A stretch of DNA of 23,637 nucleotides, taken from UHGV virus genome UHGV-1381150; one strand, 5' to 3'. The notes beneath the pieces are model-generated. The model saw only the letters and a list, made by a program, of their open reading frames with translations, was not told where the DNA came from and did no database searches. A program made the translations under genes and the position numbers. The first letter of the stretch is position 1, and the number at the start of each line of letters is the position of its first letter. The stretch is from a virus. Below are positions 6,832 to 18,470 of this stretch, one piece after another.

Positions 6832-10512
<3,681 letters not shown>

Positions 10513-10538
<26 letters not shown>

Positions 10539-11058
10539 TCAGCAACCCCGGTATCAGTTCATCCAGCGCGGCTGCTTTGTTCATGGCTTTGATGATATCC
10601 CGTTTCAGGAAATCAACATGTCGGTTTTCCAGTTCCGGAAAACGCCGCTGCACCGACAGGGGGATCCCGTCGAGAATACTGGCAATTTCACCTGCGATCC
10701 GCGACAGCACGAAAGTACAGAATGCGGTTTCCACCACTTCAGCGGAGTCTCTGGCATTCTTCAGTTCCTGTGCGTCGGCCTGCGCACGCGTAAGTCGATG
10801 GCGTTCGTACTCAATAGTCCCTGGCTGGAGATCTGCCTCGCTGGACTGCCGCAGTTCTTCAACCTCCCGGCGCAGCTTTTCGTTCTCAATTTCAGCATCC
10901 CTTTCGGCATACCATTTTATAACGGCGGCAGAGTCATAAAGCACCTCATTACCCTTGCCACCGCCTCGCAGAACGGGCATTCCCTGTTCCTGCCAGTTCT
11001 GAATGGTACGGATACTCGCACCGAAAATGTCAGCCAGCTGCTTTTTGTTGACTTCCAT
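10513..11058 (-). CDS. Nu1: Terminase small subunit Nu1
   Basis: 181-aa ORF MEVNKKQLADIFGASIRTIQNWQEQGMPVLRGGGKGNEV... matches lambda Nu1 as recalled. Confidence 0.95.
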
Positions 11059-11260
11059 TGTTCATTCCACGGCCAAAAACAGAGAAAGGAAACGACAAAG
11101 GCCCAAAAGTTCGTTTTCAGCACCTGTCGTTTCCTTTCTTTTCAGGGGGTATTTTAAATAAAAACATTAAGTTACGACGAAGAAGAACGGAAACGCCTTA
11201 AACCGGAAAATTTTCATAAATAGCGAAAACCCGCGAGGTCGCCGCCCCGTAACCTGTCGG
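11059..11260 (-). other. cos site: cosB between Nu1 and cosN; cosN 12-nt cohesive-end sequence GGGCGGCGACCT on the minus strand at 11236-11247
   Basis: Reverse complement of 11141-11247 reads GGGGCGGCGACCTCGCGGGTTTTCGCTATTTATGAAAATTTTCCGGTTTAAGGCG..., matching the lambda left end as recalled; sequence is continuous across cosN. Confidence 0.85.
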
Positions 11261-11282
11261 ATCGCCGGAAAGGACCCGCAAA

Positions 11283-11299
11283 ATGATAATAATTATCAT
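11283..11299. promoter_or_regulatory. Perfect 17-bp palindrome ATGATAATAATTATCAT containing the 7-1-7 Fur-box consensus TGATAAT-n-ATTATCA
   Basis: Read directly from the sequence; 15/15 match to the idealised Fur box; lies about 150 bp upstream of the plus-strand ORF at 11447. Confidence 0.5.
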
Positions 11300-11446
11300 C
11301 TGCATGTCACAACGTGCATCTACGCCATCAAACCACGTCAAATAATCAATTATGACGCAGGTATCATATTAATTGATCTGCATCAACTTAACGTAAAAAC
11401 AACTTCAGACAATACAAATCAGCGACACTGAATACGGGACAACCTC

Positions 11447-11680
11447 ATGTCAACGAAGAACAGAACCCGCAGAACAACAACCCGCAACATCCGCTTTCCT
11501 AACCAAATGATTGAACAAATTAACATCGCTCTTGATCAAAAAGGGTCCGGGAATTTCTCAGCCTGGGTCATTGAAGCCTGCCGCCGGAGACTGTGCTCAG
11601 AAAAAAGAGTTTCTCCTGAAGCAAACAAAGAAAAGAGTGACATTACTGAATTGCTCAGAAAACAGATCAGACCAGATTGA
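11447..11680 (+). CDS. Small basic protein (77 aa), possible ribbon-helix-helix DNA-binding fold
   Basis: ORF on the strand opposite to the late genes next to cos (the bor position in lambda); RNIRFPNQMIEQINIAL...FSAWVIEACRRRL resembles a strand-helix-helix pattern; family assignment uncertain. Confidence 0.45.
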   Translation: MSTKNRTRRTTTRNIRFPNQMIEQINIALDQKGSGNFSAWVIEACRRRLCSEKRVSPEANKEKSDITELLRKQIRPD

Positions 11681-11736: not shown

Positions 11737-12147
11737 ATGGCTCAGGTTGCCATTTTTAAACAAATATTCGATAAAGTGCGAAATAATTTAAACTATCACT
11801 GGTTTTATTCTGAACTAAAACGTCACAATGTCTCACATTACATTTACTATTTAGCCACAGAGAATATTCATCTTGTTCTTGAAAACGATAATACGGTTTT
11901 AATAAAAGGACAGGGTAAGGTTGTAAATGTAAGATTTTCAAAAAATAAATGCCTTATAGAAGCCACATTAAAAGGATTCAAATCAGGAGAGTTATCATTT
12001 TACGAATACAGGAAAAATCTTGCTACAGCAGGGGTTTTCAGATGGATTACAAATATCCACGAAAACAAAAGGTATTACTATACCTTTGATAATTCATTAC
12101 TCTTTACTGAGAACATTCAGAACACTACACAAATATTTCCGCACTAA
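11737..12147 (+). CDS. Hypothetical moron protein (136 aa from [11 protein letters not shown]), possibly DUF1398/YbcV-like
   Basis: GGAAGG Shine-Dalgarno 8 nt upstream of the ATG at 11737; AT-rich codon usage; family call is from memory only. Confidence 0.55.
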
Positions 12148-12637: not shown

Positions 12638-13075
12638 TCATCGAAGGCATTGCGTCCTGATGTACTCCTGCAGGTAGTTAACCTGCGCGGTTATCCTGTC
12701 GATTCCACTTCGGAGACGGTAATAATTGAGTTCAGCATCTGCTGTAAGTCTTGGGCTTTCTCCATCGCCCATGCTGCTGGCTCCGGTCTTTGACTTTGCA
12801 CATGAGGCGGCGACTTGCAGCCGCTTACGCCCAGCAGAAACATCATCACGGAGACTTTCGATAGTCGCGTTAGCATCAGCAAGCTCCTTTGTATATCTGG
12901 CGTCGAGTTCTGCTACGTCACGTTGACGCTTCTGCATGTCAGCGATGATGGATGTGGCTTTGTCGCGCTGGGCTTTGTAGGCGATGGCGTTATCACGGTA
13001 ATGATTAACAGCCCATAACAGGCAGACGATGATGCAGATAACCAGAGCGGAGATAATCGCGGTGACTCTGCTCAT
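12638..13075 (-). CDS. Rz: Spanin inner-membrane subunit Rz (i-spanin)
   Basis: 145-aa [34 protein letters not shown]... matches lambda Rz N-terminus as recalled; start overlaps R stop (ATGA). Confidence 0.9.
12691..12876 (-). CDS. Rz1: Spanin outer-membrane lipoprotein Rz1 (o-spanin), embedded in the +1 frame of Rz
   Basis: Nested ORF with signal peptide and lipobox LLGVSGC followed by a proline-rich segment; ATG at 12876. Confidence 0.8.
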
Positions 13076-13551: not shown

Positions 13552-13887
13552 TTACTCCTTCGAGCTACCAAACTTGTTACCGATTACTCTCATTGCAGCC
13601 CCACGAATAGCATCGACACCGATCAGCCCCACCCCACCACCAATGGCAACAGAAAGCGATTTAGGCCATCCGACATACTCAAGCGCGGATGCAAAGGTCA
13701 ACGTCAGAGCGCCACATAGCAAAATCTCGAGCGTTTTTCGCTTCCAGCCACCACCACCGCCAAAATAGGCGATGCGCAAACCAGCCATAACAATCGACAT
13801 AATCACTGCGCCCAGCGGCGTATCTCCACGCCACCAGCTCTGAAACAACTCCAGCCAGTCCGGCCAAGTATTTGGGTTATGAGGCAT
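13552..13887 (-). CDS. Holin, class I-like with three predicted transmembrane segments, not lambda S type (start at internal ATG, MPHNPNTWPDW...)
   Basis: Immediately upstream of R; hydrophobic segments LGAVIMSIVMAGLRIAYF, TLEILLCGALTLTFASALEYV, LSVAIGGGVGLIGV; charged C-terminus; start is ambiguous (ORF track begins at 13983). Confidence 0.75.
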   Translation of the reverse strand: MPHNPNTWPDWLELFQSWWRGDTPLGAVIMSIVMAGLRIAYFGGGGGWKRKTLEILLCGALTLTFASALEYVGWPKSLSVAIGGGVGLIGVDAIRGAAMRVIGNKFGSSKE

Positions 13888-13963
13888 TTCGTCATCTCTC
13901 ACCTCGCGATATTTGCGGGTGCTGTGTTGGAAATAAAAAGGCCACGCAACGTGGCCACCAGAA

Positions 13964-15016
13964 TTATTTCCCCACCAGTTCACTTACCTCTTTCACCGTC
14001 TGATTAAATCGCTCTGACTCAAGTTCAACACCTAACGCCCGACGCCCCAGCGCCATTGCCGCTTTTATTGTGGAACCGGATCCCATAAAGAAATCAGCAA
14101 CCAGATCGCCTTGTCGACTACTGGCACTGATTATTTGCCGGAGCATATCCGCAGGCTTCTCACACGGATGTTTACCCGGGTAGAACTGAACGGGTTTATG
14201 CGTCCAGACGTCGGTATAAGGCACGGAAACTGATACGGAGAAATAGCGCCGGAGAGTTTTAAACTCATCCAGCAATTCAGAATATTTGCGATTCAGTGAA
14301 TCATAAGATGCCACCAGCTGGTGGTGTGGTTGTTCCAGTTGTTGTTCCTGAAATTTCTCTGCCGCTATACGGGAAAACAGTGCCTGCAACTTCCGGTAGT
14401 CAGCCTCATTCGGCAACTGCCACTGACTGGCACCAAACCAGTGGGAAACCATATTTTTCTTACCTGTGGCTTCGGCAATTTGTTTTGCCGTTATACCCAG
14501 TTCGGCACGAGCATCCCTGAAATACGATATCAGCGGTGCCATTATGTGCTGTTTGAGTTCCCTTTCTTTTGCCGCATAGCCGTCACTTTTGCCGCGATAT
14601 GGCCCCTGGTAATGTTCAGCAAACAGAACGCGCTCTGTGGCAGGAAAATATGCGCGCAGACTTTCTTTATTACACCCATTCCAACGTCCGGACGGCTTCG
14701 CCCAGATGATATGGTTAAGCACGTTGAAACGTTCACGCATCATGATCTCAATATCAGATGCCAGGCGATGCCCACAGAACAGGTAAAGGCTTCCGGCAGG
14801 TTTCAACACCCGCCAGAACTGGGCCAGACAGTGGTCCAGCCACTTAAGGTAATCTTCGTCCCCTTTCCACTGATTGTCCCAACCGTTGGGTTTCACCTTG
14901 AAGTAAGGCGGATCGGTAACAATCAGGTCAATGGAATCATCAGGCAGGGACTGAATAAAATGCAGGCAATCAGCGTTGATTAAATCAACACTGTTTATTT
15001 TTACAGTATTTTTCAT
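13964..15016 (-). CDS. DNA methyltransferase, beta-class amino-MTase (N6-adenine or N4-cytosine)
   Basis: 350-aa ORF with catalytic motif IV DPPY (IVTDPPYF) near the N-terminus and an AdoMet-binding FxGxG-like motif (DFFMGSGST) near the C-terminus, i.e. the IV-before-I order of beta-class enzymes. Confidence 0.85.
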   Translation of the reverse strand: MKNTVKINSVDLINADCLHFIQSLPDDSIDLIVTDPPYFKVKPNGWDNQWKGDEDYLKWLDHCLAQFWRVLKPAGSLYLFCGHRLASDIEIMMRERFNVLNHIIWAKPSGRWNGCNKESLRAYFPATERVLFAEHYQGPYRGKSDGYAAKERELKQHIMAPLISYFRDARAELGITAKQIAEATGKKNMVSHWFGASQWQLPNEADYRKLQALFSRIAAEKFQEQQLEQPHHQLVASYDSLNRKYSELLDEFKTLRRYFSVSVSVPYTDVWTHKPVQFYPGKHPCEKPADMLRQIISASSRQGDLVADFFMGSGSTIKAAMALGRRALGVELESERFNQTVKEVSELVGK

Positions 15017-15165
15017 GGATCAGTAAGCGTAACTCTGGTAGGCTCACTCTGCTTTTGCGCTAAAGCAGTGGGCCGTGGTTCGCTTGTGACCAGTAAGCAT
15101 GAGCGAATGGCTGGCAGGTGCTACCAACACCCACCAGCCGCCCATTTTCACAAATTAAAAGTCCT

Positions 15166-15360
15166 TCATTGCTGAAGGCGTCTGTAACAGCCGAACTGGT
15201 AATCTGCCAGCCCCGCCATAACCAACTGGGTCAGTATTAACTGACAGCGTTCGCGTGAAAGATATGTGTTTTGTGCAATCTCCCCGACTGTTGCCGGTTC
15301 GATGCTTAATTCATTAAAAACAACTTTCGCCGTTTCTGTCATATCTTGCTGTTTTAGCAT
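15166..15360 (-). CDS. Small winged-helix-like protein (64 aa from MLKQQDMTETAKV...)
   Basis: AGGA Shine-Dalgarno upstream of the ATG at 15360; VGEIAQNTYLSRERCQLILTQLVMAGLA resembles a wHTH recognition region; weak support. Confidence 0.4.
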   Translation of the reverse strand: MLKQQDMTETAKVVFNELSIEPATVGEIAQNTYLSRERCQLILTQLVMAGLADYQFGCYRRLQQ

Positions 15361-15482
15361 GTCTTTTTTCCTTCTGGTTAACATGACATACCAATAACTC
15401 TTGTCTAAAAAGCCAGCAAGATAAAAAGTCAGTATTCACGACCACCAGCGTGTTTACCGTACTGCACCAGGTTTACAGGTAC

Positions 15483-15506
15483 AAAAAAACCCGCTCGACG
15501 GCGGGT
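15483..15506 (-). terminator. Rho-independent terminator for the minus strand (hairpin CCCGCT-CGAC-GGCGGG followed by a 7-T run on the minus strand)
   Basis: Plus strand reads AAAAAAACCCGCTCGACGGCGGGT; GC-rich 5-6 bp stem with a U-tract on the minus-strand side; only TTT on the plus-strand side. Confidence 0.55.
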
Positions 15507-15553
15507 TTAAGTTGTGTGGCGAAGTAACCACTCTTAACACAATACAATACTTT

Positions 15554-15582
15554 TTGCGTACGCGTTATAGTTTTCTTACAAT
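15554..15582 (+). promoter_or_regulatory. Candidate sigma70 promoter of the DUF262/HEPN operon (-35 TTGCGT, 17-bp spacer, -10 TACAAT)
   Basis: Hexamers read directly; followed by AAAGGA RBS (15595-15600) and ATG at 15609; prediction only. Confidence 0.4.
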
Positions 15583-15608
15583 CAACTTTCAATTAAAGGA
15601 ACGAAAAC

Positions 15609-16769
15609 ATGACTACACTCAAAGAACTCAAAGAAGAGCTTGCTCAGATACAAGATGAACACGCTAAGAACAGAAAAAAGGCTGAAATTGCAGCTTTAAC
15701 CGCTTCCGCTGACAATGAAATCAGACTCGCTCAGAGAAACATTGGATACAATGTACGTGAGTGGACCGTTGAAGTCATTATTCAAAAGTATGGTGATAAT
15801 ATTGAAAATGACAAAAACGAGCTTTTTATTCCAGATTATCAACGTGATTACAAGTGGGATACAAAAACAGCCTCTCGCTTTATAGAAAGTATTCTATTAG
15901 ACTTTCCAATACCTTACCTTTACATTGCTGATGTATTTAATGAAGACCCTGAATTAGATGGTAGGGTAGAAATCATTGATGGTTCACAACGGATACGCTC
16001 TATTTATTATTTTTGGAACGATCAATTTGAGTTAAAGGATTTGAAAGAGCTTAAAAGTTTAGAAGGTTTCAAATTTTCAGATCTTTTAGCTAGCCGCCAA
16101 AGAAGATTTTTAAGAGCTTCACTAAGATTTATTGAGTTGAAAGGTGATGTTGAGGAACAACATAGAAGAGATTTATTTGAAAGGATCAACTCAGGTGTTA
16201 AAAGATTAGAAGCGATGGAAGTGAGGCATGGCTCAGATGCTGCTACCTCAATGTTCTATAAAGATGTTGTGACCCCATGCTCAACAAACTCACTTTTTTC
16301 CCAACTAGCTCCATTATCAGACCGGAAACGGTCGAATGGCGATCATCGTGAGTTAGTTTTGAGATTTTTTGCATATTTAAATGATTTAGAAAACTATAAG
16401 GGATTTGTCCGTCCCTTTATTGATAATTATTTAAATGAACAAGCAGCAGCTGTGACTACTCAACAAGATGTTGATAATTTTAAACATGATTTTGAAATGA
16501 TGCTTGCTTTTGTTGCTACCCATTTCCCTATTGGCTTTAAAAAGACCGCAACAAGTAAAACCACCCCACGAGCCAGATACGAAGCCATTGCCGTGGGAAC
16601 TGCACTTGCATTAAAAACTAACCCACAACTCCAGAGTCCAGCCGTACCTGTAGGTGAATGGCTATTTGAAGAGGAATTTGAAACACTTGTTACTGCTGAT
16701 AGTGCAAACAATACCAGCCAGCTAAAAAACAGAATCTTTTACGTTAAAAATAAGTTGTTAGGGATTTAA
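15609..16769 (+). CDS. DUF262/ParB-like (GmrS-type) NTPase-domain protein with an uncharacterised C-terminal half
   Basis: 386 aa; motifs IPDYQRDYKW (aa 74-83) and IIDGSQR (aa 122-128) match the hallmark motifs of DUF262 domains; N-terminal coiled-coil-like segment; AT-rich gene. Confidence 0.8.
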   Translation: MTTLKELKEELAQIQDEHAKNRKKAEIAALTASADNEIRLAQRNIGYNVREWTVEVIIQKYGDNIENDKNELFIPDYQRDYKWDTKTASRFIESILLDFPIPYLYIADVFNEDPELDGRVEIIDGSQRIRSIYYFWNDQFELKDLKELKSLEGFKFSDLLASRQRRFLRASLRFIELKGDVEEQHRRDLFERINSGVKRLEAMEVRHGSDAATSMFYKDVVTPCSTNSLFSQLAPLSDRKRSNGDHRELVLRFFAYLNDLENYKGFVRPFIDNYLNEQAAAVTTQQDVDNFKHDFEMMLAFVATHFPIGFKKTATSKTTPRARYEAIAVGTALALKTNPQLQSPAVPVGEWLFEEEFETLVTADSANNTSQLKNRIFYVKNKLLGI

Positions 16770-16771
16770 AA

Positions 16772-17461
16772 ATGAGTCTAATTGATTTACGAGATGAATA
16801 TGAAGAAAGAGCAAGAGACATTATGGAACTGCTTTCTCTTGCATCATCTATAGAGATTCATACTCAGCAGTTAGATCCGCAAGCGCATCAAGATGAAATA
16901 GAATCTAATATCCTAAGGGTAAATATTTTAAAATCATCCGTTCATATGATGCTATATAATCAAGTTGAAAATACTGCCAGAGGTTGCATCGAGTCAATTT
17001 ATGATCATTTACAAGATAATGAGGTGAATTACGCATCACTCAGGGAGAAGCTTCAAGTAAATATATTACATAGAATTGTTTCAGATAATGAAACAGGGCA
17101 ATCCCTTTATAAAAAGATAGGCACTGACATTTCCAAAAGAATAATTTCAGCCTCATTGAATATTCGTAAAGAATTCAATGGTAATGTTTGCAAGCCTGTA
17201 TTACACAAAATAACGCAGGCTTACGGAATAACTATCGCAAACTCACCTGAATGTAGAAATGGTATTGACTTAGACTTGCTTAAGGATATCAGAAACGAAC
17301 TCGCGCATGGAAGTACTAGCTTCTCTAAAAAGGGGCAAATTGACCCCTTAGAAGAAGTTAAGTCTAGAGCAGAGAGAGTTGATCTATATCTTCGTTTATT
17401 AATAAACTCAACTGAAGATTATATTATCTCTAACGGATATTTATCCCCTCAACATGCCTAA
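16772..17461 (+). CDS. HEPN-like protein (Rx4H motif RNELAH), putative effector partner of the DUF262 protein
   Basis: 229 aa; starts 2 nt after the stop of the upstream gene; predicted all-helical; conserved-looking R-x4-H motif at aa 174-179 (nt 17291-17308). Confidence 0.6.
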   Translation: MSLIDLRDEYEERARDIMELLSLASSIEIHTQQLDPQAHQDEIESNILRVNILKSSVHMMLYNQVENTARGCIESIYDHLQDNEVNYASLREKLQVNILHRIVSDNETGQSLYKKIGTDISKRIISASLNIRKEFNGNVCKPVLHKITQAYGITIANSPECRNGIDLDLLKDIRNELAHGSTSFSKKGQIDPLEEVKSRAERVDLYLRLLINSTEDYIISNGYLSPQHA

Positions 17462-18470
17462 CAAACGTTCTCCCTATTACTTGGCCAATTATAGGGGGAA
17501 CAGCATTACCAATCATCGTTCCTAACTTTTGGAATGAAAAAGGCGTATTTTTTCCAATAAATTTATAATCCATAGGAAAAGATTGTAAAATAGCAGCTTC
17601 ACGCAAAGTTATTGCTCTATTTTGCTCAGGATGTCCGAATCGCCCATTACCATATCCATAACATTGGGTAGTTATTGTAGGACTAGTATCGTCCCAAACC
17701 ATCCGTCCATAAACACTTTTATAGGTAGCACCTGAATGCTTTTTATGGCAATCCGCTCTAATTTCTTCAGGCCAATCATCCCACGTACCACCTGGTAAAG
17801 AGTGCAAGATTCGTTTAAGGTTAATATCCCTTAATTTAGGCGAACGATGCAATGGATCACTTTCGAGTTTCTCCCCTGCACCTATTTTTGGCAACTGACC
17901 AATAGCATCCTTTACTGTAACTTTACGGCTTACTTTTTTTTGATCAAGGCTGATTGGCCCCAATATGGACCCAATTAGAATTAATCTACGTCTATTTTGA
18001 GGCAAGCCATACTCGGAACATTTTACAACGTCGTACCACAGATGATACCCAAGAGTCTTTAATACACTAACAAACTCTTCAAAAACCTTATGATTTCTAA
18101 GTTGAGGAACATTTTCCATAGTCACAAGCTCTGGCATGACATCACTTACAATCCTCTGAAACTCAGATAAAAGACGCCACTTTGTATCATCTTTTCTGCT
18201 ATTTGGATTACGATACTTGGAAAACGGTTGGCAAGGGGCACAGCCTGCAAGTAATCTAATATTTCCTTCCTTGAACATAGCAGACACATCGCTGGATTGC
18301 AGTTCAGTAACTGACTGGTTAATGAACTTCGTTAAGGGATTATTGCTCTCAATAGCGAAACGGCAGGACTCATCAATATCAATGCCATGAGAAACTTCAA
18401 TCCCGGCTTTTTTTAGCCCAAAAGTTAAGCCCCCTGCGCCACAAAAAATGTCTACTGCTTGAATGTTCAC
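17430..18470 (-). CDS. DNA (cytosine-5)-methyltransferase, Dcm-like (GTG start with GGAG Shine-Dalgarno)
   Basis: 346 aa with canonical m5C-MTase motifs in order: I FCGAGG, IV GCAPCQPFS, VI ENV, VIII QNRRR, a variable target-recognition region, and C-terminal GNAV. Confidence 0.9.
   Translation of the reverse strand: MNIQAVDIFCGAGGLTFGLKKAGIEVSHGIDIDESCRFAIESNNPLTKFINQSVTELQSSDVSAMFKEGNIRLLAGCAPCQPFSKYRNPNSRKDDTKWRLLSEFQRIVSDVMPELVTMENVPQLRNHKVFEEFVSVLKTLGYHLWYDVVKCSEYGLPQNRRRLILIGSILGPISLDQKKVSRKVTVKDAIGQLPKIGAGEKLESDPLHRSPKLRDINLKRILHSLPGGTWDDWPEEIRADCHKKHSGATYKSVYGRMVWDDTSPTITTQCYGYGNGRFGHPEQNRAITLREAAILQSFPMDYKFIGKNTPFSFQKLGTMIGNAVPPIIGQVIGRTFVRHVEGINIR

Follow-up and report, generated by a model that had tools for sequence, protein, structure and literature searches.

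What does a perfect 17-bp palindrome control when it lies beside the cos site of a lambda-like prophage? The palindrome is found in a 23,637-nucleotide stretch of viral DNA, the whole of which is termed the window here. The original prediction read it as a Fur box and proposed that two plus-strand cargo (moron) genes next to cos, beginning at 11447 and 11737, are iron-regulated through it in the lysogen. The question raised by this locus is therefore twofold: whether the palindrome is an operator for Fur, and whether the neighboring cargo genes, the cos site itself, or some other transcription is what the operator serves.

Palindrome and Fur-box match

Direct reading of the window sequence confirms that ATGATAATAATTATCAT, at 11283-11299, is a perfect 17-bp palindrome, the symmetry of which is lost at the next outer pair, A11282/C11300. 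As had been proposed, the core of the palindrome, TGATAAT-A-ATTATCA at 11284-11298, agrees with the 7-1-7 Fur motif TGATAATnATTATCA at 14 of 14 positions, and no other 7-1-7 site in the 23.6-kb window is free of mismatches; in shuffled sequence, 0.93 7-1-7 sites occur with up to three mismatches. The classical Fur 19-mer GATAATGATAATCATTATC is matched at 16 of 19 positions at 11279-11297, with 0 expected from shuffles, and at 15 of 19 positions on the opposite strand at 11285-11303. These two overlapping matches delimit an extended operator of ~25 bp, a perfect 7-1-7 core with partial hexamers on its flanks, which, judged by its sequence, could accommodate two overlapping Fur dimers. The extension beyond the core is symmetric in a logo compiled from 17 contexts, AAA-yGATAAT-r-rTTATCA-tTTrCA. 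The cleanest case of an extended, four-hexamer operator is seen at the right end of phage mEp237 (locus L123), where the box is contained within a perfect 25-bp palindrome, GCAAATGATAATGATTATCATTTGC. An Rfam scan of the window returned no matches.

Setting of the box in the window

The window sequence belongs to a lambda-like prophage whose late genes lie on the minus strand (Table 1). The cosN site named in the original prediction is present, and the other parts of a lambda-type cos are found with it: the cosN 12-mer is accompanied by cosQ at lambda spacing, by three R sites, and by Nu1 downstream. The gap between cosQ and the palindrome is only 5 nt, a proximity that the prediction had missed, and 148 nt separate the end of the palindrome from the ATG at 11447. 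Because the palindrome lies outside the 7-bp cosQ and outside the R4-like segment GGAAAGGA, no defined cos subsite contains the box. The location had been likened to that of bor in lambda, which is loosely right: the box does lie in the Rz-to-cos interval, but bor is absent here. Family searches place the two cargo ORFs in the DUF3950 and DUF1398 families, and a structure-database search found no PDB relative of the DUF3950 protein.

Two other parts of the prophage carry recognizable genes. The segment from 13964 to 18470 resembles a defence-type insertion within the late regulatory region; it comprises a plus-strand pair encoding GmrSD_N (DUF262) and HEPN proteins, flanked by minus-strand methylase genes. 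The early region encodes a protein with a LexA_DNA_bind domain and a PerC-like protein.

Table 1. Features of the window, with positions in nucleotides from its first letter
Feature	Position	Strand	Remarks
Terminase large subunit	8613-10538	-	
Nu1, terminase small subunit	10513-11058	-	Homologue of nohA and nohD; Pfam Phage_Nu1, E = 3e-100
cosB, three R-site cores	11081-11196	-	CGTTTCC/GGAAACG cores, lambda arrangement
R1 core	about 11081-11097	-	
R2 core	about 11124-11139	-	
R3 core	about 11180-11196	-	
cosN	11236-11247	.	12-nt cohesive-end sequence AGGTCGCCGCCC, identical to annotated lambda DE3 cos
cosQ heptamer	11271-11277	-	GGGTCCT (plus strand AGGACCC), packaging-termination subsite; sequence and cosN spacing as in lambda
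Extended Fur operator	11279-11303	.	Two overlapping 19-mer matches
Fur-box palindrome	11283-11299	.	ATGATAATAATTATCAT
Best sigma-70-like promoter over the box, predicted	11283-11310	-	10/12 match
YlcI/YnfO-family ORF	11447-11680	+	77 aa, DUF3950 (family search)
YdfO/YbcV-family ORF	11737-12147	+	136 aa, DUF1398; Pfam E = 3e-43; PDB 2HH8 (YdfO) E = 3e-67
Rz	12638-13075	-	
Holin	13552-13983	-	
N6/N4 methylase	13964-15016	-	
GmrSD_N (DUF262) protein	15609-16769	+	
HEPN protein	16772-17461	+	
C5 methylase	17430-18470	-	
LexA_DNA_bind-domain protein	21122-21481	-	
PerC-like protein	21448-21945	-	

Copies of the element in E. coli K-12 and lambda

E. coli K-12 MG1655 contains two copies of the element, one in the prophage DLP12 and one in Qin. 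In DLP12, the identical 17-mer is located between ylcI and nohD, and the layout around 'nohB' (now nohD) is that of the window: a Nu1 homologue, cosN, cosQ, the box, ylcI (DUF3950), and ybcV (DUF1398). The two sites differ at two flanking bases, 11278 and 11302, and DLP12 is a decayed prophage, whereas the window has an apparently complete terminase and head region. In Qin, a lambda-type variant of the box lies between nohA and ynfO. Lambda itself carries GTGATAATGATTATCAT at 48451-48467 (core 48452-48466), in the same cosQ-adjacent place as the window box. An unannotated 64-aa YlcI-type (DUF3950) ORF is found 148 nt past the lambda box, at about 48109-48303 on the complementary strand; that lambda has both the box and the first ORF had also been overlooked. 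Qin and lambda thus resemble the window in the cosQ-adjacent position and in the downstream DUF3950 ORF. They differ from it in that the central and the outermost bases are G rather than A, as a consequence of which their palindrome is 15 bp rather than 17 bp long.

Both K-12 copies have a history as Fur sites. The central 19 nt of the window operator are identical to those of the DLP12 site, which is the 'nohB' Fur cluster. This cluster received a score of 25.3 bits and ranks third in strength in the K-12 genome (Chen et al. 2007, PMC2189734), and for it these authors refer to the Fur titration assay of Stojiljkovic et al. (1994). Their 'nohA' site, of 22.3 bits, was given at the old coordinate 1634624, which corresponds to the center of the Qin palindrome after a 1976-bp nohA coordinate shift. 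Vassinova and Kozyrev (2000) had recovered a nohA fragment by in vivo selection, and nohA, the Qin/lambda-type variant, was gel-shifted by 150 nM Fur; nohA and nohB were both described as clusters of 3-4 overlapping Fur sites (Chen et al. 2007, PMC2189734). The window palindrome and the Fur sites 'nohB' (DLP12) and 'nohA' (Qin) are one and the same element, and as such the palindrome is already known as a Fur box.

Fur binding in CFT073

Two further copies are covered by Fur binding data from CFT073. A ChIP-seq summit at 3046729 (nohB, c3174), with a height of 20.55 (Banerjee et al. 2020, Table S5A), lies 3 bp off the center of a 17-mer at 3046724-3046740 that is identical to that of the window and is embedded in the same Nu1/cos/box/ylcI layout. 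This peak is weak compared with that of fepA, at about 3000, and the published data contain no ChIP-exo peak at the identical 17-mer. The weakness of the c3174 peak could reflect poor read mapping in repeated prophage DNA, or occupancy could be truly low. Poor read mapping may explain part of the weak or missing signals at lambda-type copies generally; in K-12, the ChIP-exo tables list no Fur peak at the DLP12 or the Qin copy.

The second CFT073 summit, at 1424721 (nohA, c1568), has a height of 283 (Banerjee et al. 2020, Table S5A). It falls on the degenerate box ACGAGAATAATTATCAC, which is cosQ-adjacent in another CFT073 prophage, and a ChIP-exo peak at 1424699-1424711 (Gao et al. 2023) falls on the same box. 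The c1568 copy differs from that of the window in that its box has two mismatches and its cargo genes are unrelated. Its peak is stronger than that of c3174, and it is the one copy for which derepression in a fur mutant is documented. Two Sakai ChIP-exo peaks, ECs0835 and ECs1988, were considered as related sites and rejected, since they are located inside tape-measure genes.

The identification of the palindrome as a Fur box is thus upheld by the perfect consensus match together with Fur titration, in vivo selection, gel shift, ChIP-seq, and ChIP-exo on homologous or identical copies. The palindrome is a genuine, high-affinity Fe2+-Fur operator in our reading, and binding of Fur to this very site is very likely. 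The experiments that had been suggested as checks have to a large part been carried out on the identical or near-identical copies of K-12 and CFT073, with a positive outcome for Fur titration and gel shift and a negative one for fur-mutant expression in K-12.

Promoters and transcription at the box

The best sigma-70-like promoter predicted over the box is on the minus strand. Its putative -35 hexamer, GTGACA (11310-11305), and -10 hexamer, TATCAT (11288-11283), are separated by a 16-nt spacer, and the predicted promoter points into cosQ, cosN, cosB, and Nu1. The promoter scan as a whole shows no enrichment over shuffles, and neither lambda nor the other contexts conserve the minus-strand -35; the corresponding hexamers of Qin and lambda, GTGATA and TATCAC, are poorer than those of the window. 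No plus-strand -35/-10 pair over the box was found in the scan, the nearest weak candidate being at 11337-11367. The literature yielded no mapped transcription start at the box: searches for ynfO and ylcI start sites and a review of the lambda lysogen transcriptome were empty near cos, and a paper on ydfO and ionic liquids has no bearing on Fur.

These observations bear directly on the proposal that the box is the operator of a plus-strand cargo promoter, such that in the lysogen Fe2+-Fur would repress the DUF3950 and DUF1398 genes at 11447 and 11737 and iron starvation would induce them. The position of the box upstream of two ORFs that read away from it is as this proposal would have it, but both the 148 nt between box and ATG and the results of the plus-strand scan count against it. 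Expression in K-12, where the box and the gene layout are the same, is mostly adverse as well. Published RNA-seq of K-12 fur mutants shows no derepression of nohA/nohD, ynfO/ydfO, or ylcI/ybcV. In an MG1655 fur mutant, ydfO, ybcV, nohD, and nohA are essentially silent and unchanged. In a W3110 fur mutant, the cos-proximal genes of DLP12 and Qin do respond, which could be taken in favor of the proposal, but they go down, with log2 changes, from low counts, of -3.7 for ybcV, -5.3 for ybcW, -5.1 for ynfO, -2.0 for ydfO, and -2.8 for nohD, and a decrease for ylcI also. The direction of the W3110 changes is the opposite of simple Fur repression.

The observations most in keeping with a cargo operator come from the c1568 prophage of CFT073, in which the genes on both sides of the degenerate box are up by log2 2.1-2.9 (4- to 8-fold) in fur mutant RNA-seq. 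The cargo-side genes C_RS07340 and C_RS26755 account for values of 2.3-2.9 and one head-side gene for 2.1, and the ChIP-exo peak sits on the box. The derepressed cargo genes are, however, unrelated to those of the window, and both the CFT073 Nu1 homologues and the identical-layout c3174 locus are absent from the published table of Fur-dependent operons. The idea of iron-regulated cos-proximal genes is therefore partly supported. It is favored by a relative with different cargo; for the 11447 and 11737 ORFs it is a conjecture, against which stand the negative plus-strand promoter scan at the box and the K-12 counterparts, which do not rise on deletion of fur.

Linkage of the box to cos across phages

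Comparison with other phages shows with which of its neighbors the box travels. A BLAST search of a phage collection returned several mosaic phages whose similarity to the window is confined to the stretch from cosB up to and including the palindrome, beyond which they diverge. Stx1a phages, PhiR12_2, and PhiR63_2 have a slightly degenerate box beside cosQ and are without DUF3950 and DUF1398. Conservation within the lambda-type cluster was uninformative, as diversity was too low and cosB poorly aligned, and was replaced by a test across contexts. For this test, 190 loci with the cosN-to-cosQ pattern were grouped by the sequence past the box into 22 unrelated downstream contexts. A box with at most three mismatches is located 4-7 nt after cosQ in 16 of the 22, including lambda, phi80, and, in degenerate form, N15; among control windows of DNA from the same loci, a match with at most three mismatches is reached in 3 of 484. 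Across contexts, the arms are nearly invariant, whereas the central base differs and the stretch that separates cosQ from the box differs in both sequence and length. The cos/box segment was found in 4450 of 5426 complete E. coli genomes (82%). HK97, which has a different cos, has no box. A contig scan with GGTCGCCGCCC-N-AGGACCC was unspecific, nearly all of its matches being chance occurrences in GC-rich genomes, and no paper discussing a link of the Fur box to cos was found in literature searches.

In many contexts the neighboring gene reads toward cos rather than away from it, as is seen in mEp237, at PHI80_66 of phi80 (perfect box), at gp59 of N15 (degenerate box), and in several IMG/VR loci. 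The box is found at cosQ whatever the downstream genes, and thus counts as the outer border of the conserved cos module, not as a component of the DUF3950/DUF1398 cargo cassette. A regulatory site belonging to a moron moves with its cargo, and this one stays at cosQ when DUF3950 and DUF1398 are replaced or absent. The comparison with known cases is instructive. Like the stx1 gene, which is Fur-regulated prophage cargo, and like sitABCD of lambda-like phages, the window presents a host Fur box inside a lambdoid prophage. The stx1 and sitABCD boxes overlap the promoter of the cargo gene itself and move with the cargo, whereas the window box moves with cos. Retention of the box in Stx1a phages and PhiR12_2, which lack these ORFs, and in contexts whose neighboring gene reads toward cos (mEp237, phi80, N15, and several IMG/VR contexts) weighs against a tie between the box and the two cargo genes, and with the transcriptional results it makes an operator dedicated to a plus-strand cargo promoter somewhat unlikely. 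In phi80, a 76-aa ORF ~0.9 kb from the box, PHI80_64 (L323 1661-1891), is annotated as a 'putative Fur-regulated protein'; it has no Pfam or NCBIfam family match.

A variant of the cargo reading is that the palindrome is an autoregulatory operator of the DUF3950 protein, the sequence of which we take to be ribbon-helix-helix-like. A palindrome in front of its own gene is a frequent target of a small DNA-binding protein of this type, but family and structure searches give no sign of DNA binding by DUF3950, every position of the box fits the Fur consensus, and identical and homologous copies are bound by Fur. Since the box persists in phages that lack the DUF3950 gene, this highly improbable reading is effectively refuted.

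The box is absent from the other 6 of the 22 contexts, in which cosN and cosQ are identical. In a complete-looking prophage of E. coli S1-CAM-01-A (L322 4040-5876), a gene pair encoding a 'beta family protein' and a 'sce7726 family protein' abuts cosQ and the box is gone. Gifsy-1-like loci (L254, L278, L285, and L311) have no Fur box in the first 75 nt past cosQ; in these, a homologue of pliG (PDB 4DY5, 'Gifsy-1 prophage protein', E = 2e-69) is preceded at ~30 nt by a palindrome, ATTGTTATAATATAACAAT, which resembles the E. coli Zur box and may be one. The Gifsy-1-type pliG locus is thus similar to the window in having a metal-regulator-type palindrome within 45 nt past cosQ, and it is different in that the palindrome lies ~20 nt further out and directly upstream of its own cargo gene. 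In five other loci (L251, L266, L267, L281, and L300), the place of the Fur box is taken by an intrinsic terminator, GCCGGATTTCTCCGGC, with its T-run on the late-transcript strand. In all 5 checkable terminator loci, the cosB side lacks a Nu1 homologue; L251 has capsid-like genes before cos, and this element looks like a satellite.

The tight linkage invites the reading that the box is an accessory part of cos, with bound Fur or the AT-rich palindrome itself slowing or positioning terminase and so tuning cosQ-dependent packaging termination, or else protecting or marking the right DNA end, which is the first to enter the cell. The offset of 4-7 nt from cosQ, maintained in the 16 contexts with any flanking genes in any orientation, is in keeping with this, as is the end of homology between mosaic phages just past the box. 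The annotators of phi80 include the box in a 55-bp feature named 'cosQ, aka R4 region'. It is also the case that cosQ defects are suppressed by slower packaging motors. On the other hand, the six contexts with identical cosN and cosQ and no box, among them the complete-looking prophage, the Gifsy-1-like loci, and the satellite-like elements, indicate that the box is not essential for a working cos. Saturation mutagenesis reportedly delimited cosQ to 7 bp, and the literature searches found no published link between Fur and lambda packaging. An accessory role in packaging is accordingly considered quite improbable.

At the other extreme, Fur may bind a site that has no physiological function, a strong consensus match that hitch-hikes with cosQ because the two are only 5 nt apart. 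Transcriptional output at the lambda-type copies of K-12 and CFT073 is weak or nil, as would be expected, and the diversity of the lambda-type cluster is too low to demonstrate selection. The pattern across unrelated contexts is harder to reconcile with a functionless site: the arms have been retained despite variation in the 4-7 nt spacer and at the central base, and a neutral 15-bp AT-rich segment would be expected to decay or to be recombined away in more than 6 of 22 lineages. Absence of function is thus unlikely.

Discussion

The probable explanation of the palindrome is a genuine Fur operator that marks the outer limit of the cos module and through which Fur exerts a weak, possibly bidirectional, and context-dependent control of cos-proximal intergenic transcription. 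In the iron-replete lysogen, Fur on the box would block RNA polymerase from the AT-rich, -10-like hexamers inside it. The only decent promoter-like arrangement of the window would direct minus-strand transcription into cosQ, cosN, cosB, and Nu1. Under iron scarcity, release of Fur would allow weak transcription from the intergenic region, possibly in both directions. The sequence, its linkage to cos, its conservation, and, from the literature, the binding of Fur to identical or homologous copies are observations, whereas we infer both the promoter that is controlled and the size of the effect; any effect on the 11447 and 11737 ORFs is probably small.

A bolder version would make the Fur operator a selected, integral subsite of the right end of the lambda-family cos rather than a cargo regulator. 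Host iron status would then act at cos through Fur occupancy, either by gating transcription into the terminase/head operon in the lysogen or by setting a protein 'speed bump' at 5 nt ahead of cosQ and so adjusting the termination of packaging. The intrinsic terminator at the position of the box in some box-less relatives fits the idea of gating transcription into the terminase/head operon. This version is speculative, and its prospects of being right appear slight.

As a Fur box, the palindrome is nothing new. What makes it mildly interesting is that lambda, phi80, N15, and most lambda-like prophages carry one of the strongest Fur consensus sites of E. coli at a distance of 5 nt from cosQ and keep it there regardless of the neighboring genes, with a transcriptional output that is weak or absent where it has been measured. 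Its conservation beside cosQ is a modest curiosity. If Fur does have a role at cos, the iron status of the host would be linked to phage packaging or to silencing of the terminase genes.
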